Assembly: GCA_039815185.1 (NCBI GenBank)
Contig: JBCBZT010000001.1
Span: forward strand, 32,001-96,000
DNA: 64,000 bases
Direction of reading: 5' to 3'
From: Cyanobacteria bacterium P01_A01_bin.123
GTDB taxonomy: Bacteria; Cyanobacteriota; Cyanobacteriia; Phormidesmidales; Phormidesmidaceae
The notes under the pieces were generated by a model. The model had not been told where the DNA came from, ran no database searches, and saw only the letters and a list, made by a program, of their open reading frames with translations. Shown here piece after piece: positions 51,929-64,000 of this stretch. How positions within the stretch are numbered: position 1 is the stretch's first letter; every line of letters starts with the position of its first letter. Made by a program: the position numbers and the translations under genes.

Positions 51929-54118
51929 GTGAAGCAATTTCCTCGTGGCATTCGCTTTTTGGGCCGTCGTACCCAAAAGGCCATCCAAAGTTCATCCCTG
52001 CGCCTTGCATTTACGGTGCCGGTTGTGGTGCAGCTATTGGTAGCAGTCGGCTTAGTCGGGTATCTGTCGTTTCGCAATGGGCAGCAAGCCGTGCAGGACT
52101 TGGCCTCCCAGTTACGTAGCGAGGTGTCTGCCCGGATCAAAGGGGAATTGGAAAGCTACTTTGGCGATCCCCATGCCATCAATCGGCTCAACGCCACAGC
52201 TTTTTCTAATGGGGATTTAGACGTTGAGCAAGCCACCCAGGGCGAACATTTGCTGTTTCAGCAGATGAGAATTTACCCTGAGATCGCTTTTGTCTATTGT
52301 GGCAGCGCTCGCTCGGGAGAGTTTTTTGGGATTTTGCGATCGCCTGAGACTGGTGAATTGCAGCTGTCCTACGGCAATGCGAGCAATGCCTTTTATCGAG
52401 ACTACTACAGTCTTGACGTCCGGGGCGATCGCCAGCATTTTATCTACCGAGCTGAGCAAACTTACGATGCTCGCCTGCGACCCTGGTTTAATGCTGCCCT
52501 GAATGCAGAAATGCCGACTTGGACCGATGTCTACGTTGCCTTTACCACCAGACTGCCTAACGTCACTGCGAGTCTGCCAGTTTACGATCGCCGCGATCGC
52601 ACACTACTTGGCGTTTGTGCTACGGATGTGGTGCTGCCAGAGGAGTTTCGCACGTTCTTAAAGGAACTCAAAATCGGCCAGTCAGGACAGGCTTTTGTAG
52701 TGGATCGTCAAGGCAATCTCATTTCTAGCTCTACCGATGAACCCTTGATGGCCGGAGCAGCAGACAATCCTCAGTTTCTTAAGGCGGTTGACAGCCACAA
52801 CCCCCAAGTTCAAGAGTCTGCGGCCTATTTATTGAACCGTTTTGGCTCCCTCAAGCAGATTCGTCAAAATCAGCAGTTAACGTTTGACCTAGACGGAAAG
52901 CGCAAATTTTTAGAGGTACTCCCCTTCAACGATGGCTTTGGGTTGGACTGGCTGATTGTGGTAGTTGTCCCCGAATCAGACTACATGGGTCAAATTCTAG
53001 CCAACACCCGGAGTACAATTCTGCTGTGCAGTGTGGCGCTGGTCGTTGCCCTCGGTATCGGTATTGGACTGGCCCAACGGGTTACGGCCCCTATCCTCAA
53101 ACTCAACACGGCGGTCAAAGACATTGCCGAAGGCGACTGGTCCCAGCGGGTTGAGGTAAACCGCACCGACGAAGTAGGCGAGTTGGCAAATTCGGTCAAC
53201 TCAATGGCCACACAGATTCAACAGGCGTTTGAACAACTCGAAACGCAACGCAACGCCTTTTCCCGGTTCTTCCCCCGGGAGTATTTAGAGTTTCTCAACA
53301 AGAAAAACGTCACGGAGATCGAGCTGGGGGATCATGTCAGTAAAGAGATGAGCGTGATGTTCTCCGATATTCGGGGCTTCACGCGTTTAGCGGAGAAAAC
53401 TCACCCCCAAGAGGTGTTTGACTTTATTAACACCTACGTTCAACGGATTTCACCGGAAGTGCAGTCGCACCATGGGTTTGTGGTGAAGTTTATTGGTGAT
53501 GGGGTGATGGCAATCTTCCCCAATACGGTGGAGGATGCCATCGATGCGGCGATCGCCCAGTTTAAGCAGGTTCAAGACTACAACCAACAGCGTCAAAAAG
53601 CGGGCTACTTTACCATTGAAATTGGCATTGGTCTCCACTTCGGGCATGTGATGGTCGGCATGATTGGGGAACCCAATCGCATTCAACCCGATGCTGTCTC
53701 TGACACCGTTAATTTGGCAGCGCGTCTAGAAGGTATGTCAAAAGTCTACGGGGCAGCCCTAGTGGTTTCTGAAGCGATGTTGAAACAACTGAAAGATCGC
53801 GATCGCTACGAATTACGCTTTTTAGACCGGGTGATTGTCAAAGGGCGCACTGAGTCTATTTCCATCTACGAGGTTTTAGATGCGGAAACAGACATGAGGC
53901 GATCGCTTAAACAACAGACTCTAAAGACCTTTGAAGCGGGTATTCAAGCCTACAGCGATCGCGACCTAGCCACAGCCCAAGACCACTTTGACGCTGTGCT
54001 CGCACAAAATCCAGAAGATAAAACAGCGCAGCTGTATGAGCAGCGAATCCGCCTCTTAATAGAGCAAGGTGTGCCCCACGACTGGGACGGCGTCTGGGCA
54101 TTTACTCAAAAGCGTTAA
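51929..54118 (+). CDS. Membrane class III adenylate/guanylate cyclase with Cache and HAMP domains
   Basis: TM-Cache (YDARLRPWF)-TM-HAMP (DEVGELANSVN.M); FSDIRGFT, VKFIGDGVM, GIGLHFG, DTVNLAARLE, VKGR; TPR-like tail ending WDGVW. Confidence 0.92.
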   Translation: MKQFPRGIRFLGRRTQKAIQSSSLRLAFTVPVVVQLLVAVGLVGYLSFRNGQQAVQDLASQLRSEVSARIKGELESYFGDPHAINRLNATAFSNGDLDVEQATQGEHLLFQQMRIYPEIAFVYCGSARSGEFFGILRSPETGELQLSYGNASNAFYRDYYSLDVRGDRQHFIYRAEQTYDARLRPWFNAALNAEMPTWTDVYVAFTTRLPNVTASLPVYDRRDRTLLGVCATDVVLPEEFRTFLKELKIGQSGQAFVVDRQGNLISSSTDEPLMAGAADNPQFLKAVDSHNPQVQESAAYLLNRFGSLKQIRQNQQLTFDLDGKRKFLEVLPFNDGFGLDWLIVVVVPESDYMGQILANTRSTILLCSVALVVALGIGIGLAQRVTAPILKLNTAVKDIAEGDWSQRVEVNRTDEVGELANSVNSMATQIQQAFEQLETQRNAFSRFFPREYLEFLNKKNVTEIELGDHVSKEMSVMFSDIRGFTRLAEKTHPQEVFDFINTYVQRISPEVQSHHGFVVKFIGDGVMAIFPNTVEDAIDAAIAQFKQVQDYNQQRQKAGYFTIEIGIGLHFGHVMVGMIGEPNRIQPDAVSDTVNLAARLEGMSKVYGAALVVSEAMLKQLKDRDRYELRFLDRVIVKGRTESISIYEVLDAETDMRRSLKQQTLKTFEAGIQAYSDRDLATAQDHFDAVLAQNPEDKTAQLYEQRIRLLIEQGVPHDWDGVWAFTQKR

Positions 54119-54295: not shown

Positions 54296-57214
54296 ATGGC
54301 GTTGACCTACGACGATGTATTAGCAGGCCCGATTGTTCGTCGGGTTGAACCCGGCCTAGCAGCGGTGTGGATCGCGCTACGTAAACCGGCCCAGGTGAAG
54401 CTCAAAATCTGGGAAGGCCTGGTTCGGGGAGATACCACCCAAACTGCTGTAGTGACGGGTTCTGCCATAGGCACTCGACCTGTAGGGGCTGAACTACACC
54501 TAGCTCTAGCAACTGTGGTGATGGCCCAGGGAGATAATAATGTTCGTTTGCAAAGCGATCGCATTTATACCTATGACCTCATCCTGAAAGAATCTGATAC
54601 AGATGCGGAGCAAGGACTGCTGGCGCTGGGACTGTTGGAAGAGCGAAAAACCAACGACCAGGTCACCCATTTACCCCTAGGTTATGAACCTGGATTGTTG
54701 CCTGGATTTGCGCTGCCTCCCACTGACATTCAAAATTTGAACCTGGTACAAGGGTCGTGCCGCAAGCCCCATAGTGCGGGCGACGACGCCATGACCTTTA
54801 TTGATGGGCTATTCGAAGATGACGACCAAAAGCACTACCGCGATCCGCTGAAACGGCCCCATCAGCTCTTTCTAACCGGCGACCAGATCTATGCCGATGA
54901 GGTTGCCAGTGACTACCTGGCATTGCTGAATACAGTGGGTAACCGACTGTTATCTGGCCAGGATAATCAGGTTATTGAACGGCTACCGTTTGAGCATAAC
55001 GACGCGGTTCACGCCATCCCCCTCTCCACTGAGCACTTCCCCCCCAGTCGGCGACAACGACTCATTCGCAAGGCTGCCAAATTCACCTCAGGATCGGGCA
55101 GTTCCCATTTATTGGGCTTTGGTGAATATTGCGCTTCCTATCTCTTGAACTGGTCTAATGTACTGTGGCCAACGGATTTCTTTGCCCAAGCCCTATCGTC
55201 TCGTTGGCAACGGGTGCAGGCTTATAAAACTGCCAGAACTGACCTGCGCGAAGCGCTAAACGCAGCCCAATTGGAGGGCAAATCCCAGGACAATGCAAAG
55301 GCCAAGTTAGACTACTATGCTGCTGGGAAACTGTTGCCCCCTGCCTGGCGCAAGATTGATAAATTTCTTACCTCAGAAGATAAAACAGGTGATTGGGGCA
55401 CTGAAGACATGAATGGCTTTGCCATTCAAACGCCCCCCGACACCACAGCAGGCGTGACGGGTACGGTGCCTTTCCCCAATCAAGTTCCTGCCGAGGTTCA
55501 GCGAGCATTGGCCAAGACCCTATCTCCCAGTTGGTATGTGGGTTGGGAAAGTCAAGGGTTTGCGGCAAATGTCAATGAGGATGAACTGTATACCGATAAG
55601 GTCTTGGCCGAATTGCGATCGGTTCAGACCTTCTACGCCGGTTTACCTAAGGTGCGTCGGGTACTGGCCAATGTCGCCACCTACATGACCTTCGACGATC
55701 ACGAAACCACCGACGATTGGAATATTACTCAAAACTGGATCGCTGCGGTTAATGGTTCACCCATGGGTCGTAACATTCTGCGTAACGGCATGCTGGCCTA
55801 TGGGCTGTTTCAAGCCTGGGGGAACGATCCGCTTTACTTTGAAAGCCTTAAACCTAATGGGGAAGCTGATAATGAAACCCCAGGGACAAAGATGCTCAAG
55901 GCCGCATCGAAATTATTTCTAACCGGCGAGGCTAATCCTCGGCAAATCGGGCCCCACGGTGGCCTCAATGCCAACAAACGAGATACCGCGATCGCAGCCA
56001 CGCTCAATCAGCTCTTTAATCTCACTGAAACCCCCACCGAACCTGCAGAAAGGGTGCGCTGGTACTACCGAGTTGGGGGGGGTGGGTACGAAGTATTTAG
56101 CCTGGATACCCGCACATTCCGAGGCTTCAAGACACCCAACGGGCCTCCGCAGCTAATCACCCTCCCTCAACTAAAAATCCAAATTCCCGAAAATCCAGAG
56201 TACAGCTACGGCACCCCAACCGATGGACAGGGCATCACCTTTGTAATCGCCGCTGCCCCAGTACTCGGCTTCCCGCCCGTTGAAAACATTTTGCAACCCA
56301 TCGTGAATACCCTCGACAGCCTTGCATTGGGGCCTGAGGGATTGTTCAAATCGGCACAACAAGACTACTTCACCGGGGCTTTTAACCACGATCCAGAACC
56401 GTGGAGCTACCACGAAGATATTTTTGAAGGGCTGTTAGTCCAGCTTGCCGAGCACAAACGAGTCGTCTTTATTTCCGGCGACGTGCATTACGCCTGTAGC
56501 GTCAAGCTCGACTACTGGCAGCTGTCTGCAGAAAATCCTGGCGATAACGCAGACCCACCACCGCCTCAACATACCCGCTTTATTCAACTCACCTCCAGCG
56601 CCTTAAAAAACTTCGCCGGGGACACGAAGAATGTGATGTCCCACAGTGGCTCAGTCTCTCGCATTGCGCAATCGCTGGCGTTACCCCAAGAGCGGATGGT
56701 GTGGGATAAAGCAGGCCGCGATCATCCCCTGGAACCGCCCGCAGATCAAGGGTTTAATCTGCTGGTGAAACACAAGCTCAATGATAATCCGGTCTTTATC
56801 CCCGTTTCTGCACTCCCGGAAGGTACTCAGCAACACTACAGTCCTAATTCCGTTTGGCGGCTGGCGCTAGTCCACGATGGCCGCAGCGATGCAGACCGCT
56901 TCCAAGGGTTAAACGGTGTACCTGACTTTCAAGCAGAGGGGACAGAGGATAAAGCCGACATTGGCTTTATCGGCAGCGTTATCCAAAAACACTTCTGGCA
57001 CGCTGTTCACGGCCCCTCTCGGCTGATTACCTTTGCCAACAACGTTGGCCAAATCACCGTACAACCCGACGCCATTCGTTACGCCGTCTATTCCCAGCTT
57101 AGAGATCTACCCGAAAACGGCAAGCCAGCCAAGGCAAGACCCTACACTACTTACACCATTCCTTTTGCAGCAGACGATCAACCCCCACCCAGCCTTCCTG
57201 ACGTTAGTTCATGA
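54296..57214 (+). CDS. PhoD-like (alkaline phosphatase D family) metallophosphoesterase, 972 aa, no signal peptide
   Basis: LAGPIVRRV, GSCRKPH, LFLTGDQIYADEV, YMTFDDHETTDDW, LDTRT, FISGDVHYA, QLTSSALKN. Confidence 0.82.
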   Translation: MALTYDDVLAGPIVRRVEPGLAAVWIALRKPAQVKLKIWEGLVRGDTTQTAVVTGSAIGTRPVGAELHLALATVVMAQGDNNVRLQSDRIYTYDLILKESDTDAEQGLLALGLLEERKTNDQVTHLPLGYEPGLLPGFALPPTDIQNLNLVQGSCRKPHSAGDDAMTFIDGLFEDDDQKHYRDPLKRPHQLFLTGDQIYADEVASDYLALLNTVGNRLLSGQDNQVIERLPFEHNDAVHAIPLSTEHFPPSRRQRLIRKAAKFTSGSGSSHLLGFGEYCASYLLNWSNVLWPTDFFAQALSSRWQRVQAYKTARTDLREALNAAQLEGKSQDNAKAKLDYYAAGKLLPPAWRKIDKFLTSEDKTGDWGTEDMNGFAIQTPPDTTAGVTGTVPFPNQVPAEVQRALAKTLSPSWYVGWESQGFAANVNEDELYTDKVLAELRSVQTFYAGLPKVRRVLANVATYMTFDDHETTDDWNITQNWIAAVNGSPMGRNILRNGMLAYGLFQAWGNDPLYFESLKPNGEADNETPGTKMLKAASKLFLTGEANPRQIGPHGGLNANKRDTAIAATLNQLFNLTETPTEPAERVRWYYRVGGGGYEVFSLDTRTFRGFKTPNGPPQLITLPQLKIQIPENPEYSYGTPTDGQGITFVIAAAPVLGFPPVENILQPIVNTLDSLALGPEGLFKSAQQDYFTGAFNHDPEPWSYHEDIFEGLLVQLAEHKRVVFISGDVHYACSVKLDYWQLSAENPGDNADPPPPQHTRFIQLTSSALKNFAGDTKNVMSHSGSVSRIAQSLALPQERMVWDKAGRDHPLEPPADQGFNLLVKHKLNDNPVFIPVSALPEGTQQHYSPNSVWRLALVHDGRSDADRFQGLNGVPDFQAEGTEDKADIGFIGSVIQKHFWHAVHGPSRLITFANNVGQITVQPDAIRYAVYSQLRDLPENGKPAKARPYTTYTIPFAADDQPPPSLPDVSS

Positions 57215-57370
57215 AGGCACAATACCGCCACCATTCTCCCACTGAGCAAGGTTGGAGCACATCTATCCCAGGAATCTCTAAAACCTGCATTCCCTGACCC
57301 ACATGGGTTAGCGGAGCGTAACCCACGCTTCATGAGTCGATTCTGACCTCAGCAATCTTCCCATAGGACT

Positions 57371-57425
57371 CCCTCCGCCCCCTTCCTCCCCTACCCCCTC
57401 TCTCCCTCCCTACCTCCCCTCCCCC
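57371..57425. repeat. C-rich polypyrimidine tract (G-runs on minus strand)
   Basis: ccctccgcccccttcctcccctaccccctctctccctccctacctcccctccccc immediately before the ATG at 57430. Confidence 0.7.
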
Positions 57426-57429
57426 AGCC

Positions 57430-60400
57430 ATGAGCCACTTCAACCTCTCCGACTTCCTCAATACCCTCCTCGAAAGCCTAGACGAGTTATTCAAGCGACT
57501 GGAAGAACCCAGCTATTGCCTGCGCTGCGATGTGCCCGTCATTCAGCCGACGGCAGCACTGAGACAGGAGCTGGCGACGGCCAAAACTGCTTTCAAAGAG
57601 AAAAAGCATGACCTAGCCGCGATCGCCACAACTCGCATCTCTGATCGGCTGATTAAGCTGATTTTGGAAAGCGGCGAACTCGACTTAGACGATCTGGATG
57701 ACCAGACTGCCAAACAAATGGCTGATTTTCTGGTTCAGCGATTGGTCTTGCCGGTTGTGTTCGATGTCCTACGGCGGAAATATGTAGAAACCCGCTCAGA
57801 CGAGAGCAAACGCTTTGGGTGGCTTTTTGCCATTCTCTATTTTGGCACCTTAGGCATAACCATCCTCGACGGGCGGATGCAGGAATGGATGAGTCAAGAA
57901 CTCTCGGTGCATCGGTTTGGGGCATTGGGTGGAGAAGCTTGGCAAGCCTGGAAAGCAGAGATAGAGGGGGAAAACACTGAAGATAGCCACTGGCCGATTT
58001 ACTTGGCAGACATCATCGGGTTCCTGACTCCCCTCACCATTCCCCTATCCAATAAGCTTAGAACCCATTTATGGATGACCCATGGTTGGGAATCGGCTGA
58101 TGCCATTCCTTTTCCTGCCGCAGCGGAGGTGGCTGAGCACACTGTCTCTATTTGGTGGGAAGATCACCCTGATCTAAAAGCTGAAGAAAATAATTATCAA
58201 CTTACGCCCCCCGCAGATCCGTCAACCTTTGAGCGGCTAGGGCTAACCTTAATTCCACTATTGGCCAAACATGGAGGCCCCTATGTGTTGCCGCTGCCGC
58301 AGTTGGGGTTAGCTTCGACACCAAGTGTGGCCCCCAATGCACGCCGCAACATAACCCCAAGTGCAATCCAAAACGCGGCCCTGGATAATCCGAGTGCGGC
58401 GGTCGTCAAAAAGAAAACGTTTGGCAATTGGGCGTTAGAACTGCATGCCCCTGACAATCTGGCGTCGGTGATCGGCAATGTTGACGCCAAACTCACCTAT
58501 AGCAGCGATGAGCCCCTATTCTCCCTGGGCAATGAAGACGAACCGGAGCGTGGCGTTTCCCTAACCATCAATAATTTTGAGTTGGCTGCGAATGCGGCAT
58601 ACAACTTTGATGTCCTCGAAGAGACTGATCTAGGTGCCGTAATTCGGATCAAGAAGGCCACATTTTCTCTCGGGAATCCTGGCGGCAGTGACCTATTGAA
58701 GCGGGCACTCCCCAAAGGGATTGGTGGCACCTTCAAGGCAGGTTTGGGGATAAAGCTGAAGCCAAAACAAGACCCCCAATTTTTCTGGGAAGGGGGGCTA
58801 GGCCTAGATTTGTATGTGCCGATTGATTGGGAAACCCCGTCTATCGCAGGAATATCTATAGATATCCCCAACCTGAAACTGGCGCTGAAAGGACAGCAGA
58901 TTGAAAGTGGTGCTCAATTAGCGCTGGATTTTGGCATCTCTATCGCCCTCAACCTTGGACCGTTGACGCTATCAACCACAGGGCTAGGGGGGACACTTTC
59001 GCTGACCCACACCTCTGGCCTACAGGGTAATTTAGGGCCAATGAATTTTGATTGGACGCTCCTAGAGCCTGACAGTTTGGGGATTGCCCTCAAAACTGGC
59101 CCGGTGAATGGGGGTGGATTTTTAGCACGGGATGAGGAGAAAGATCGCTGGTTTGGTGCTCTCAGCCTTAAGTTCAGTAAATTCACTTTGGATGGGGTGA
59201 TCATGACCGAGGGTGATAGCGTCCTCGGAATTGTCTGGGCCAGTCGATTGAATCTGCCTTTTTTGGGCGGCCAGATTGAAGGACTGGGGATTTTGGTGGG
59301 TTGCGATCGCACGGTCAGCATCGACGCCTTCACCCAGGGCTTGAAGAACAACGTCCTCGACAGCATTCTCTTCCCCAGTGATCCGGTGGCTAAAGCGCCG
59401 CAGATTTTAGCAACGGTCAGCCAATTGCTTCCCCGTGCAGAAAACCACACCGTCCTTGGGGTCATGGCCCGTTGGGTGTTTGGTGGCCAAAGCCGCCTGT
59501 TTGCGGTTGAATTGGGGATCCTGCTGGAATTTGTTGGCAAAAGCCTGCGGGCTGGGTTCCTGATTGGCCAGGGCAGCCTCCGCCTGAGGAAAGTGCCCGA
59601 GTCGGTCTTTGCCCTTAATTTAGACCTCTTTGGGGCAATTGATCGCGGTCGTGGGGATAACGATGATAATGAGTACTTTCTCAAAGCGGTGTTACGCAAC
59701 TCCCGCGTGGCCGGTAGCGAACTCACAGGCAGTGGTTTGTTTTACAAAGGGCCGAAGAGTGAGTTTGTGATCTCTGTCGGGGGCTTCAATCCGCGCTATC
59801 CGGTACCGTCCCATCCCCTGTTTGACCTAGATCGGGTTAAGGCCACCCTGGTTAACCGAGATAACCTGAAACTCTTTTTCCAAGGTTATATTGCGCTTAC
59901 CACCAGCAGCTTTCAAATTGGCATTCACGCCCAGTTGCTCTACAAGAAAGCAGGGTTCACCGTGGAAGGTCTGTTGAGCCTGGATGTGTTGGCTCGATTT
60001 GAAGGACAGTTTTTTGTTGACTTAGCTTTAGAGCTTGCTGTTCGTCGCGGCAGCCGCATGATTGCAGGTATCGGATTGGAAGGCACCTTCTCGGGTACCT
60101 CTCCCTGGCGGATTGAAGGTCGGGCTCGGTTAAAGCTGCTGTTCTTAAAGGTGAGCTTCCCGATCAAGTGGCAATCGAGTGGTGATAAGCCAGCCGCTGC
60201 AGAACCCGTCGATGCCTTGGCGGCTCTACGGGCAGAACTCATCGCTCCCGAGAACTGGAGCGGCAATACCCCAAGTACAGGGATTGTCCTCCGAGAAATC
60301 TCGCGAGAGGGGGTCTGGATAGACGCAAAGAACAGCCTCCGGGTTCAACAAACTGCTGTGCCGCTAGAAGAGCGCATTACACGCATTGGGCCTTCCCCGC

Positions 60401-60993
60401 TGCGCCAGCCCACCACCTTTGAGATAACTGATGTTCAACTGGGCCAAACGTCTCAAGCTTGGCAAGCGGTGGAAGACAACTTTAGTCCTGGGCTGTATCA
60501 GGATGTCGATTTGGATGAAGCAGTGCGGGCACCCATGTACGAAAAGATGGCTGCAGGGGTGGAGCTCACGGACACCACGCTAGACATTGGCGATGCGGTG
60601 GATGGGGGCCATGCCTACGAAGAAGAATTCATTGATGACGAACTCGATCAGGCTTTTAGAACTGAAGTCAACCGTCGGCGTCGCGATCGCGCTGCTATGA
60701 CCTTGCCACAAAACGCACTGGCCACACTGGGTCACACTGGGCTGCGTCCGTTGGCGGTTAGCCACAGTCTGCAACGTCCTGACACTGACTTTTATCAGGT
60801 CTCAGCCGAGCCAATCACGGTGCAGTCTCCCCGTTACTTGATCGCAGATGATAACTTGCAACTCGACGACCGCTTAGACAGATCCACCGCTGAACGAGGG
60901 CTGTCCTACAGTCAAGCTCGGCACCTGTTGCACAAGGGCTGGATCCAGCGCAGTCGCTCAAACATTGTTTACCGCTACGAAGCCGTTACCTAA
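57430..60993 (+). CDS. DUF6603-like large beta-rich protein, 1187 aa
   Basis: Helical N-terminus, then a long Gly/hydrophobic beta region with GPVNGGGFL, ILFPSDPV, SVGGFNPRY, GYIALTTSSFQIG, GTSPWRIEG, LRVQQTAVPL; recognised from memory as DUF6603-type motifs. Confidence 0.7.
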   Translation: MSHFNLSDFLNTLLESLDELFKRLEEPSYCLRCDVPVIQPTAALRQELATAKTAFKEKKHDLAAIATTRISDRLIKLILESGELDLDDLDDQTAKQMADFLVQRLVLPVVFDVLRRKYVETRSDESKRFGWLFAILYFGTLGITILDGRMQEWMSQELSVHRFGALGGEAWQAWKAEIEGENTEDSHWPIYLADIIGFLTPLTIPLSNKLRTHLWMTHGWESADAIPFPAAAEVAEHTVSIWWEDHPDLKAEENNYQLTPPADPSTFERLGLTLIPLLAKHGGPYVLPLPQLGLASTPSVAPNARRNITPSAIQNAALDNPSAAVVKKKTFGNWALELHAPDNLASVIGNVDAKLTYSSDEPLFSLGNEDEPERGVSLTINNFELAANAAYNFDVLEETDLGAVIRIKKATFSLGNPGGSDLLKRALPKGIGGTFKAGLGIKLKPKQDPQFFWEGGLGLDLYVPIDWETPSIAGISIDIPNLKLALKGQQIESGAQLALDFGISIALNLGPLTLSTTGLGGTLSLTHTSGLQGNLGPMNFDWTLLEPDSLGIALKTGPVNGGGFLARDEEKDRWFGALSLKFSKFTLDGVIMTEGDSVLGIVWASRLNLPFLGGQIEGLGILVGCDRTVSIDAFTQGLKNNVLDSILFPSDPVAKAPQILATVSQLLPRAENHTVLGVMARWVFGGQSRLFAVELGILLEFVGKSLRAGFLIGQGSLRLRKVPESVFALNLDLFGAIDRGRGDNDDNEYFLKAVLRNSRVAGSELTGSGLFYKGPKSEFVISVGGFNPRYPVPSHPLFDLDRVKATLVNRDNLKLFFQGYIALTTSSFQIGIHAQLLYKKAGFTVEGLLSLDVLARFEGQFFVDLALELAVRRGSRMIAGIGLEGTFSGTSPWRIEGRARLKLLFLKVSFPIKWQSSGDKPAAAEPVDALAALRAELIAPENWSGNTPSTGIVLREISREGVWIDAKNSLRVQQTAVPLEERITRIGPSPLRQPTTFEITDVQLGQTSQAWQAVEDNFSPGLYQDVDLDEAVRAPMYEKMAAGVELTDTTLDIGDAVDGGHAYEEEFIDDELDQAFRTEVNRRRRDRAAMTLPQNALATLGHTGLRPLAVSHSLQRPDTDFYQVSAEPITVQSPRYLIADDNLQLDDRLDRSTAERGLSYSQARHLLHKGWIQRSRSNIVYRYEAVT

Positions 60994-61098
60994 ATAGACG
61001 ATCTGCCTCGGAACGTACCGATGAGTTGTAAACCTCATCTTAAAGGCGCAAGGTCTTGTGCCCCCCTAACGCAAACTTCCTCCTTGGAGCGCCCGATC

Positions 61099-64000
61099 AT
61101 GAATACCCCCAACAAATTTCTCCCCTATCTCCGGACTGGCGCAGCCACCGTGATAGACACCGTCGATAATGCCAACAGCCCGGCCCATTTCAGAACCACT
61201 GCCACGGTAGCGGTCAATGGCACTCCGGTGTCTACTCCGATTCATCTATTTGGGCCTGGGGACGTCATTGGGCTAGATCAAAACCAAATTTTGCGGCGGG
61301 AACCGGCACCAGAGGAGGTTGACTTTGAGCCCAATTATTTCCCAATGGTGGAGCTGCGAGAGGCAGATTTGCCCTGGCGGTTCACCCCAACGCAGGCGGA
61401 TCCAGACGGGGGGGTGCGACCCTGGCTGACCTTAATCACGCTAGAAGTCGATGCCAGTCTGGCAGCACAGCCATCGGGGGAAGCGCCTTTGCCGGCGATC
61501 GCCGCACCGCTAGCCGAACTCCCCAACCTGGAAGAAGTTGCCCTCTGGGCCCATGTGCAAGTGTCTGGCCCGTTTCCTTCAACCCAGATGAGCTCGGCAA
61601 CCCTCCAGGAATATATCGGAGACCATCCTGACCGGGCGATCGCCCGGCTACTCTCTCCCCGACGGCTTAAACCCAACACAGGCTATCTGCTTTGCCTGGT
61701 ACCCACCTTCGAGGTGGGACGCTTGGCTGGCCTGGGCGAAGACTTTGATGAGGATGCCTTAGGATTGCAGCCCGCTTGGAACTTTGACCCGGAAAGCTCA
61801 GGGCATGTCAAGCTGCCTGTTTATGACCTGTGGCAGTTTCGCACTGGCGCAGCGGGAGACTTCGAGAGCTTAGCGGCAGCGCTACAACCCTATCAGTATG
61901 CAGAGGAGATTGCCCTACAGCGGTTCACTGTCGATCCCCTATTGGCAGGAGACGACGTTTCTTTGCCACTAGAAGGAGCCCTGCGTCCGGTTGTTGAGAA
62001 TCGAGTGATCGAACCAGTACCTAACCCAGTGCCTCAAACGCTGACGGACTGGCTTAACCGCTCAGCCGAGATTGAAGAGCAGGGCGGCGACCCCCAGGTA
62101 ACCCCACCAATTTACGGTCGTTGGCAGGCCGATCGGCGGCGGGTGAATGGGGCTGACAGCCCAGACTGGTTGGATGAACTCAACCTGGATCCGCGTCATC
62201 GGATTGCTGCCGCCGCTGGGGGTGATGTGGTGCAGCAGTATCAAGATGAATTTGTGCAGATGGCCTGGCAGCAAACCGGACAATTGCCAGAAGCCAATCG
62301 TCTCTTGCGGCAGGCCCAAGCAGCCAGTTTGATCAGCACTCGCCTCCAGCAGCGCCATTTCAAATCTCTGCCTGCCGATGTGTTACTCCAGGTAGCCGGG
62401 CCTAGCCAATCGCGGATTCGTCCCTGGGACAGTGATCAAACGCTATACAAAACCATTGAGTCTAGCTCTGTCCCCGAAGCTGGGTTTGAAGGGGCCTTTC
62501 GACGCATGACGCGATCGCGCGGTCCCCACTTACGCCGGGTCCTCAGCAGCACGGACGAGAACAGCCGGACTTTCTTCTTTCAGCAGGGGTATCAGCCCTA
62601 TCTGATTCGCAGTGGTCAAGTGATCGATGAGGGCAATATCTCAGCCCCCTCACAATGGCAAGCGCATACGGTCGGCTCCCTTAAGGTGATCAAGCGCCTC
62701 ACCCAAAGTAGCAATATCTACTCCCTCCCCCATGACCCAGCCGATCTACCGAAGCGCGGCACCCTCTACCGGATCGGCGATTATCGCTGGAAGGATCTGA
62801 AATTTGCCATGCTAATGCGAACAACCGACAACGACGCCATGGGGGTGATGTTTCGCTATCGCGACAGCCGCAACTTTTATCGCTTTTCGATGGACAATCA
62901 GCGCAAATATCGACGGTTGGTGAAATGCGTTAACGGCAGATTCACGCTGCTCTGGCAAGATGGCTTTATCTACCAACCCAACCAAACCTATGCCTTTCGG
63001 GTCGTCGTAGAAGGCAGTCGGATTCGCCTCTCAATGGGCACTAGCAGACCGATTCAGTTTGCTGAAGTGATCGACAGTTCTATCCGCTCCGGCAATGTCG
63101 CTCTCTACATTTGGGGGAATCACTTTACAGAATTCCGCGATCTCCAGCTTGACGTCAACCCCGGCTACGGGCTGCATGACAACTTAAGAGCTCAGGTCGT
63201 TGACGAAGGCAATACTGCCGCTCCCTCAAAATGGAAAGTCGAAGACGGCATCCTGAAGCAAACGAGTAATATCTACAGCGTTCCAAAGGATCGCAATGAA
63301 CTTGCCAAACGTGGCACCTACCTGAAGGCTGGACAACCCTATTGGAAAGATTATTCCATTGAGGCAACCCTAGCCACCCAGGATGACGATGCCATTGGGT
63401 TGATGTTCCGCTATCAGGATACGAAGAATTTCTATCGGTTTTCGATGGATCAGCAGCGCTCGTATCAACGCTTGGTGAAATGCGTCAACGGCAAATTCAC
63501 CTTGCTTTGGCAGCGAGAAGAAGGCTTTGACACGAGCTTCTTCCATGTAGGTAATGTAGTCAAACTGATTGCCGACGGCACTCGGTTGATCGGTTATCTC
63601 AACCGCAGCAAAATTTTTGATCTGCGTGATCACAGCCATAGGCAGGGCAAAATCGCTTTCTACTGCTGGGGGACTCCCGATGCCGAATTTCGTAACGTGA
63701 AGGTTAGGCCTTTGCACCGCGATCGCCTGCTGAATCGACTCAATTTAGGGCTAATTGAGGGCAATCTCCCGTCCCCATTAGAAATGGAGACGCTGAAGCA
63801 AACCTTCCTGACCGAAACCAACGGTCAGAAACTGGTGAATGCCCGCATCCGCGATCGCATTCAGTCCGCCGCTCTGATAGACACCGAACCCACTCCTCTG
63901 CACTCAGCCCCGAAAATCCCCCAACCCCTGGCCCCCAAACTCATCGAACAGGCCCCTAATCTGCTGCTACCCGGCATGCAGTCTGTACCGGATAGCGCCG
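61099..64000 (+). CDS. Large conserved hypothetical protein (partial, >967 aa) with two tandem TSP-C/L-lectin-like beta-sandwich domains
   Basis: Not in the ORF track. Manual translation is open from ATG 61099 (GGAG RBS; in-frame ATG also at 61021) to the window end: FLPYLRTG...LFGPGDVIGLD...FEPNYFPMVEL..ADLPWRFTP...RPWL...WAHVQ...LVPTFEVGRLAGLG...WQFRTG..GDFESL...PPIYGRW...ELNLDPRHR...AWQQ. Confidence 0.85.
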   Translation, partial: MNTPNKFLPYLRTGAATVIDTVDNANSPAHFRTTATVAVNGTPVSTPIHLFGPGDVIGLDQNQILRREPAPEEVDFEPNYFPMVELREADLPWRFTPTQADPDGGVRPWLTLITLEVDASLAAQPSGEAPLPAIAAPLAELPNLEEVALWAHVQVSGPFPSTQMSSATLQEYIGDHPDRAIARLLSPRRLKPNTGYLLCLVPTFEVGRLAGLGEDFDEDALGLQPAWNFDPESSGHVKLPVYDLWQFRTGAAGDFESLAAALQPYQYAEEIALQRFTVDPLLAGDDVSLPLEGALRPVVENRVIEPVPNPVPQTLTDWLNRSAEIEEQGGDPQVTPPIYGRWQADRRRVNGADSPDWLDELNLDPRHRIAAAAGGDVVQQYQDEFVQMAWQQTGQLPEANRLLRQAQAASLISTRLQQRHFKSLPADVLLQVAGPSQSRIRPWDSDQTLYKTIESSSVPEAGFEGAFRRMTRSRGPHLRRVLSSTDENSRTFFFQQGYQPYLIRSGQVIDEGNISAPSQWQAHTVGSLKVIKRLTQSSNIYSLPHDPADLPKRGTLYRIGDYRWKDLKFAMLMRTTDNDAMGVMFRYRDSRNFYRFSMDNQRKYRRLVKCVNGRFTLLWQDGFIYQPNQTYAFRVVVEGSRIRLSMGTSRPIQFAEVIDSSIRSGNVALYIWGNHFTEFRDLQLDVNPGYGLHDNLRAQVVDEGNTAAPSKWKVEDGILKQTSNIYSVPKDRNELAKRGTYLKAGQPYWKDYSIEATLATQDDDAIGLMFRYQDTKNFYRFSMDQQRSYQRLVKCVNGKFTLLWQREEGFDTSFFHVGNVVKLIADGTRLIGYLNRSKIFDLRDHSHRQGKIAFYCWGTPDAEFRNVKVRPLHRDRLLNRLNLGLIEGNLPSPLEMETLKQTFLTETNGQKLVNARIRDRIQSAALIDTEPTPLHSAPKIPQPLAPKLIEQAPNLLLPGMQSVPDSA

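Follow-up and report, generated by a model that had tools for sequence, protein, structure and literature searches.

A conserved DUF6603 gene set with exchangeable enzymes in a cyanobacterium and beyond, and its possible role as a released enzyme-carrying particle

A stretch of 64,000 nucleotides (nt) from Cyanobacteria bacterium P01_A01_bin.123 (contig JBCBZT010000001.1, positions 32,001 to 96,000; hereafter the window) ends within a run of large genes, here called A to E, which is the subject of this work (Table 1). A sequence-only reading of the window had noticed three large, co-oriented open reading frames (ORFs) separated by short gaps, and proposed that they form a three-gene system. 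The ORFs are real, lie on the forward strand and are set 215 nt (A to B) and 27 nt (B to C) apart; retrieval of the downstream sequence, as that reading had advised, supplied the end of gene C and two further genes, D and E, beyond which the following ORF runs in the opposite direction, giving five co-oriented genes. The start of C on record in the protein database is ATG 61099, for a product of 1215 amino acids (aa). The idea of a conserved multi-gene set stands; its size does not, as there are five genes with B-C-D-E as the core.

Table 1. Features of the DUF6603 locus and of a second cluster in the same genome; positions are those of the window unless a contig is named, and positions past 64000 are window-equivalent.
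Feature	Position	Strand	Description or basis
Gene A	54296-57214	+	972 aa; PhoD-family metallo-phosphoesterase, enzyme of the present copy
Gene B	57430-60993	+	1187 aa; DUF6603 protein
B N-half, about residues 1-500	57430-58929	+	tree of residues 1-300, correlation with A, hydrophobic-moment pattern
DUF6603 domain, β-rich B C-half	58861-60450	+	correlation with D and E; identity of tandem copies
Gene C	61021-64746 (passes window end at 64000)	+	1241 aa
Two tandem DUF1080/CBM66-like β-sandwich domains in C, residues 533-710 and 725-895	62617-63705	+	PF06439, 4azz match
Gene D	64898-69193 (contig 96898-101193), beyond window	+	1431 aa
Gene E	69342-71018 (contig 101342-103018), beyond window	+	558 aa
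Second DUF6603 cluster	G000:C121:155389-170842 (L076:1889-17342)	-	DUF6603, Anthrax_toxA-family and C-homologue genes

The core is conserved across a wide range of lineages. A survey of GTDB genomes anchored on C gave at least 612 relatives among the 631 pattern matches listed, and 72 loci were retained; synteny was counted at the 70 where a C gene had been called, leaving out L040 and L059, where the overlap filter had removed the C ORF. At loci with room for the gene in question, the order B-C-D-E was found with D at 63 of 63, E at 47 of 48 and B at 53 of 56. These loci span Nitrospirota, Acidobacteriota, Verrucomicrobiota, Chloroflexota, Actinomycetota, Pseudomonadota, Bacillota, Bacteroidota, Gemmatimonadota and cyanobacteria, and in a further 80 metagenome loci anchored on E, D lay upstream wherever room allowed. 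Such recurrence of gene order in dozens of genomes is far beyond chance, and it bears out the earlier suspicion that an uncharacterised cluster recurs in diverse bacteria, including the co-occurrence of homologues on which that suspicion depended. E is also present on 14 plasmid records, haloarchaeal ones among them, and the gene set occurs in monoderms and haloarchaea; no relative of C was found on viral contigs. Homologues are plentiful for C (905 among 8000 candidates), D (249 among 7998 candidates) and E (5604 clusters at 50% identity), and named isolates with the system include Nodosilinea nodulosa PCC 7104, Variovorax, Streptomyces and Micromonospora. Incomplete copies were seen as well: a fragment of E with none of its companions (L172:3074-4129, genome G038), and a C-D pair without upstream B or enzyme (L213:12064-19670, genome G439).

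Closer to the present genome, the distribution is patchy: 2 of 400 other phylum members carry E, as does 1 of 30 relatives; D is present in 8 of 150 genomes from the same family, and 9 of 400 other phylum members have DUF6603. Since this patchiness goes together with an elevated G+C content (54.8% for the locus vs 50.2% for the genome), the locus is likely to have arrived by horizontal transfer. The HIP1 sites that had been noted in all three ORFs are indeed there (2 in A, 3 in B and 5 in C), with 8 more in D and 1 in E, and their density matches that of the genome (1.14 vs 1.12 per kb). The view of the locus as long-resident thus keeps the HIP1 density in its favour, with the patchy spread and the higher G+C standing against it. 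The frequency of HIP1 sites and the nearest named homologues, which are cyanobacterial, show that the host is evidently a cyanobacterium.

What varies most strikingly between loci is the gene upstream of B. For 44 aligned B sequences, the gene on the 5' side encodes a PhoD-type enzyme in 26 cases, an HKD-type phospholipase D (PLD) in 4, an M64 peptidase in 3, an S8 subtilase in 2, a GH25-containing protein in 1, a weakly NAL1-like protein in 1 and an unclassified protein in 7. Genomes from the same cyanobacterial family add NAL1/trypsin-like proteases and tyrosinase, bringing the slot to at least seven classes (PhoD, HKD-PLD, subtilase, M64, NAL1-like, GH25 and tyrosinase). The PhoD-type protein, earlier proposed as a part of the complex, is therefore only one possible occupant of this slot. 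Most of the named cargo classes target membranes, proteins or cell walls, and among them are no TIR, SIR2 or restriction-type nuclease proteins. Several loci carry two tandem enzyme-B pairs before a single C-D-E, with spare cassettes of this kind at L007, L009, L011, L015, L020 and L039. Two unusually long B proteins (1753 aa at L028:4717-9975 and 1693 aa at L111:14520-19598) have several hundred extra N-terminal residues without a Pfam match and are possibly enzyme-B fusions; the one at L111 lies downstream of E, perhaps as a spare cassette.

Gene B proved to be a mosaic. The identification of its product as a DUF6603-type protein is confirmed by PF20248 (234 bits; residues 478-1007, model positions 9-485 of 502), and the hydrophobic-moment pattern predicts a helical protein up to about residue 240, followed by some 600 residues of amphipathic β-structure. 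In a tree of B residues 1-300, clusters follow the class of the upstream enzyme, across phyla: all four PLD-linked sequences, from three lineages, fall in a single clade (99/95), as do all three M64-linked (99/99), both S8-linked (96/87) and both members of one unclassified enzyme group (98/99), each in a cluster of its own, while PhoD-linked sequences split into clades of 12 (plus one unclassified) and 13. Tandem B genes within one genome mark the boundary: their 3' halves share 99.5%, 99.9% and 92.7% DNA identity over 1.7-2.0 kb, whereas the 5' halves share 17-40% up to a sharp junction at about residue 500. Pairwise identities at 18 PhoD loci (153 pairs, which are non-independent) tell the same story, A correlating with B1-300 (Spearman 0.72) and not with B540-1050 (0.10), D (0.11) or E (0.08), whilst B540-1050 tracks D (0.93) and E (0.89). 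The tree, the tandem junction and the correlations together lead us to define the mobile unit as the enzyme plus the B N-half; by these sequence comparisons, C, D, E and the B C-half make up the constant chassis. We posit that the B N-half is a putative enzyme-specific adaptor or inhibitor. Of the four closest relatives of the present B, three match over the full length and one in the C-half only. No internal repeats were detected in B, nor in C or D, and the ESM Atlas gave no usable match for B.

In the present copy the slot is filled by A, and its earlier recognition as a PhoD-type phosphoesterase holds, with PF09423 at 31.1 bits against a curated cut-off of 27, next to a weak DUF7800 match at residues 8-48. 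Residues C155, D196, Y199, D467, D468, H469 and H731 are invariant in 26 of 26 aligned sequences, and D473, D474 and D729 are kept in 24, 23 and 25 of the 26, respectively. The Fe-Ca-Ca ligand set of PhoD (Cys, Asp, Tyr, Asp-Asp, an Asn/Asp pair, Asp and His) is complete in A, with Tyr and His at what we take to be their positions in Bacillus subtilis PhoD. The mapping follows motif order and spacing relative to residues given in PMC4223295, in place of a direct alignment to 2YEQ; as in that enzyme, the Cys, Tyr, Asp and His ligands come in the same order, and the spacing of D467-D468 to D473-D474 equals that of D265-D266 to N271-N272. A is nonetheless about 400 aa longer than B. subtilis PhoD and the Streptomyces PhoD-type PLD, is linked to DUF6603 genes and is too divergent for a sequence match to solved PhoD structures. 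While canonical PhoD is Tat (twin-arginine translocation)-exported, by the account in PMC4223295, the RR motif typical of exported members is found in 0 of 26 A sequences, so that this subfamily would need another export route if it acts outside the cell. Within one phylum, 4 of 301 genomes, the present one among them, matched the subfamily, and a B gene follows A in all four; from these sequences, the subfamily seems tied to the DUF6603 system. In Actinomycetota, the PhoD-type A proteins of four loci (L034, L048, L049 and L052) have long extensions at the C-terminus that bring them to 1540-1680 aa, and one of these proteins carries a peptidoglycan-binding domain.

C consists of a conserved core of about 870 aa and a variable central insert, as judged from an alignment of its relatives. 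The motifs GPGDV.G, EPNY, PWR.TP and LNLDPR.R, which the earlier reading had named for this gene, lie at residues 78, 103, 118 and 387 and are kept in relatives. Here the insert holds two DUF1080-like domains (PF06439, 37 bits) that are 44% identical to each other, and it matches a carbohydrate-binding module of a levanase (4azz, E 7.8e-4), the module we take to be CBM66; these domains are likely glycan-binding, as predicted from sequence. Other relatives of C have tachylectin, FG-GAP or DUF1080 domains or hydrophobic hairpins at this place, and most lack a lectin-type insert altogether. The proposal of lectin-like inserts in gene C thus gains a match of glycan-binding type for this copy, though not for most relatives.

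D, the largest conserved core protein, is largely helical and has no significant family match in Pfam, NCBIfam, PADLOC or PHROGs. E has no Pfam family match either, which leaves the C, D and E cores outside any family, and profile comparisons detected no homology of the three to one another. A confident model of E (predicted local distance difference test 84, predicted template modelling score 0.82) shows long β-strands and a helical domain at residues 91-203. Foldseek searches with this model returned neither a PDB entry nor a viral protein model at E<=0.001; in the ESM Atlas, the best match is a cluster without a name (0.88). The modelled fold is without a convincing known match, which does not prove a new fold. 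We did not accept a SAM-like helical domain at E residues 87-198, since the best VIA-align hit (Z 4.2, root-mean-square deviation 3.8, 77 residues aligned) tied with unrelated ones. Swappable modules are found on E as on C: among 34 extended E proteins, Pfam recognises a domain in 18, namely TIG (9), collagen (3), DUF2934 (2), PA14/F5-8, LamG, LTD, PASTA, WD40 or P-domain, and most of these domain types are characteristic of proteins exposed at the surface. A weak profile similarity (probability 2.8%) connects residues 99-197 in the helical domain of E with residues 849-934 of D, possibly a shared interaction module. In L004 (4709-5515) and other Nitrospira-type loci, an additional gene lies between C and D; its product has about 270 aa and matches coiled-coil-type Pfam families, and a region of this kind seems to be joined to the N-terminus of longer D proteins elsewhere.

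The same genome holds a second DUF6603 cluster (47.9% G+C), with genes for a 1377-aa unclassified protein, a 577-aa fibre-like protein, a 605-aa Anthrax_toxA-family protein, a 1531-aa DUF6603 protein and a 731-aa homologue of C (hhalign probability 71%, E 3.7e-5, three collinear segments). The Anthrax_toxA-family gene, for an edema-factor-like cyclase (56 bits), lies directly upstream of the DUF6603 gene. This second layout was found in 7 of the 11 DUF6603 regions retrieved; their fibre genes encode tail-collar, S74 chaperone or LamG domains, and further enzymes lie near DUF6603. The 1377-aa protein was considered as a counterpart of D, which was not supported (probability 0.2%), and of E, with which it shares two short motifs only (2.4%).

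Do these sets belong to a system already known? No significant match for A-E was found in NCBIfam, PADLOC or PHROGs, nor by sequence and profile searches against the PDB; family, sequence and profile searches thus gave no characterised system; a match to one would have undone the earlier proposal. In RefSeq, DUF6603 (PF20248) relatives are labelled "DUF6603 domain-containing protein", and the genes that come after them are mostly labelled as hypothetical proteins; we found no function, structure or gene-set description in print: no paper came up on DUF6603, PF20248, DUF7800 or IPR046538 (an accession we presume to be the right one), in a coverage that stops short of supplements and most subscription journals. 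The accessible parts of PMC3482391 and PMC12419801 do not describe the gene set. We consider it new as a system, although a description under another name is conceivable.

Tc toxins, which are glycan-binding giant toxins without signal peptides and are released by lysis (PMC10847048), set a precedent. Like A-E, Tc toxins such as YenTc comprise several 60-170 kDa subunits without signal peptides, with glycan-binding decorations and interchangeable enzyme cargo (PMC10847048). Unlike them, the present set encodes its cargo in a separate gene upstream of B rather than as a cleaved C-terminal tail, and its locus has no linked lysis cassette. Pfam and NCBIfam detected no TcA, TcB (SpvB) or RHS-repeat domains in A-E, and the profiles match no solved Tc chain; a TcA-like channel or cocoon fold was looked for in E alone, the one modelled protein, with a best Z of 4.2. 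Sheath, tube, baseplate and spike proteins likewise have no Pfam or PHROGs match in A-E, and the flanking ORFs examined show no recurrent gene of these kinds. Polymorphic toxins (PMC3482391) share the exchange of enzyme cassettes at a conserved junction and the presence of tandem spares, an exchange pattern which supports a toxin-like reading. In the DUF6603 set, by contrast, what varies sits at the N-terminus or upstream and takes in one half of a second gene, and no immunity gene is recognised; the trafficking markers PVC, type VII secretion (T7SS), TcdB/TcaC, MuF and PrsW, listed in that same text, were not detected. No separate small gene of immunity type recurs at the loci, a role that the B N-half could fill.

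We favour, at a probability of roughly 45%, the possibility that the gene set encodes a cytoplasm-built particle which is released, binds glycans and delivers interchangeable enzymes to a target cell. B, C, D and E would assemble in the cytoplasm as a large complex, which would leave the cell by lysis or another route requiring no signal peptides. It would bind sugars on the target surface through its swappable modules, here the two CBM66-like domains of C, and hold its cargo through the matching B N-half; the enzyme delivered, presumably to an antagonist, would here be A, plausibly acting as a phospholipase D. That the PhoD family includes phospholipases D had been asserted earlier and agrees with the Streptomyces enzymes described in PMC13435022. 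The absence of export signals, also remarked on before, holds across relatives by a simple heuristic: Tat motifs occur in 0 of 26 A, 0 of 44 B, 0 of 42 C, 0 of 42 D and 0 of 147 E sequences, and just 2 of the 301 A-E sequences have a hydrophobic stretch at the N-terminus. A constant chassis, swapped enzymes, lectin and fibre modules, no signals and a sister cluster with a cyclase: it is this combination that a released particle fits best, and of the three functions first suggested (released toxin or particle, membrane remodelling, defence) the others fit less. By analogy, such a particle may work as a Tc or polymorphic toxin would whilst belonging to neither, a suggestion somewhat short of even odds.

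Several observations weigh against this reading. No separate immunity gene recurs beside the core, nor does a holin, endolysin or ATPase gene, and there is no conserved, strongly hydrophobic pore segment (family-average hydropathy over 19 residues peaks at 1.74 in B and 1.29 in D). A-E have no family or sequence similarity to Tc, contractile-injection or phage parts. The genome does have four phage-sheath matches, three of them over the cut-off (C96:52795-56349, two adjacent; C9:54653-54949; C15:13499-13804), possibly from a contractile injection system; they are unlinked to the locus, and help from outside it is conceivable. Joint transfer of adjacent DNA alone could explain why enzyme and B N-half match, and the present B sits on a long, unplaced branch (3.37) of the B1-300 tree. 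Furthermore, tyrosinase and phosphatase cargos suit scavenging or matrix-building as well as they suit killing.

The last point leads to a scaffold, released or surface-held, that gathers digestive or modifying enzymes on polymers or particles in the manner of a cellulosome, for scavenging or matrix-building, here freeing phosphate without injection. Cargos that are mostly hydrolases plus tyrosinase, lectin-type modules, the lack of an immunity gene and conserved pore segment, and the phosphate-scavenging role of PhoD (PMC4223295) would all fit. We nevertheless consider it unlikely: one enzyme per dedicated 1100-aa B and a core of about 4400 aa is a costly arrangement, cassette exchange suggests an arms race, the sister cluster pairs an edema-factor-like cyclase with tail-fibre tips, and none of the ORFs flanking the locus in the present genome looks related to phosphate uptake. 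More improbable is an intracellular module for defence or programmed death, in which B-C-D-E would sense infection or stress and activate a destructive enzyme held inactive by the B N-half. Swappable effectors, a patchy spread, the plasmid-borne copies (14 records) and the missing export signals could be read in this way, yet PADLOC defence models gave nothing better than E 0.07 for the five proteins, and among 146 of 233 flanking ORFs (56 loci; no control, shadow ORFs included) there were 11 matches, only 3 of them plausible as true defence genes. The named cargos, free of TIR, SIR2 and restriction-type nucleases, and the mostly extracellular types of the appended modules also tell against it.

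The least probable of the accounts considered is an envelope lipid-handling machine, with B as an AsmA/TamB-like β-groove moving lipids to or from the attached enzyme. B does share with AsmA/TamB a long amphipathic β region, some 600 residues by its pattern, and PhoD and HKD-PLD make up 30 of 44 cargos, families able to act on phospholipids (PMC13435022). In contrast to AsmA/TamB proteins, B has no Pfam or profile match (comparison with a cyanobacterial TamB profile, of low sensitivity, gave probability 0.1) and no N-terminal membrane anchor or signal; protease, lysozyme and tyrosinase cargos require no lipid conduit, and the system is present in monoderms and haloarchaea.

What would a released, enzyme-delivering particle mean more widely? 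Bacteria and archaea would have a new means of antagonism or of deploying enzymes outside the cell, and the sharp junction in B suggests a rule of cargo choice, each enzyme being expected to bind its own B N-half only. E alone spans its thousands of clusters, yet our searches found no paper that mentions DUF6603. Tentatively, and with slightly less than an even chance of being right, the DUF6603 sets could represent self-contained protein-delivery machines of a new class, with no sequence relationship to Tc toxins, contractile injection or numbered secretion systems and present in thousands of clusters across bacteria and haloarchaea. Such a machine would be re-armed at the B junction by a unit of enzyme and adaptor half-gene, re-aimed by exchanging the lectin or fibre modules that C and E bear, and made in part of proteins with new folds.

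Some minor features of the locus complete the picture. Directly upstream of A, and co-oriented with it, lies a Cache-HAMP-adenylate/guanylate cyclase gene (window 51929-54118, forward strand), whose recurrence beside relatives was not seen. A promoter and terminator scan of the locus did no better than on shuffled sequences. Pyrimidine-rich short repeats lie 5' of genes B (window 57380-57429), D and E, and a similar stretch of about 30 nt is common to the gaps between C and D and between D and E.

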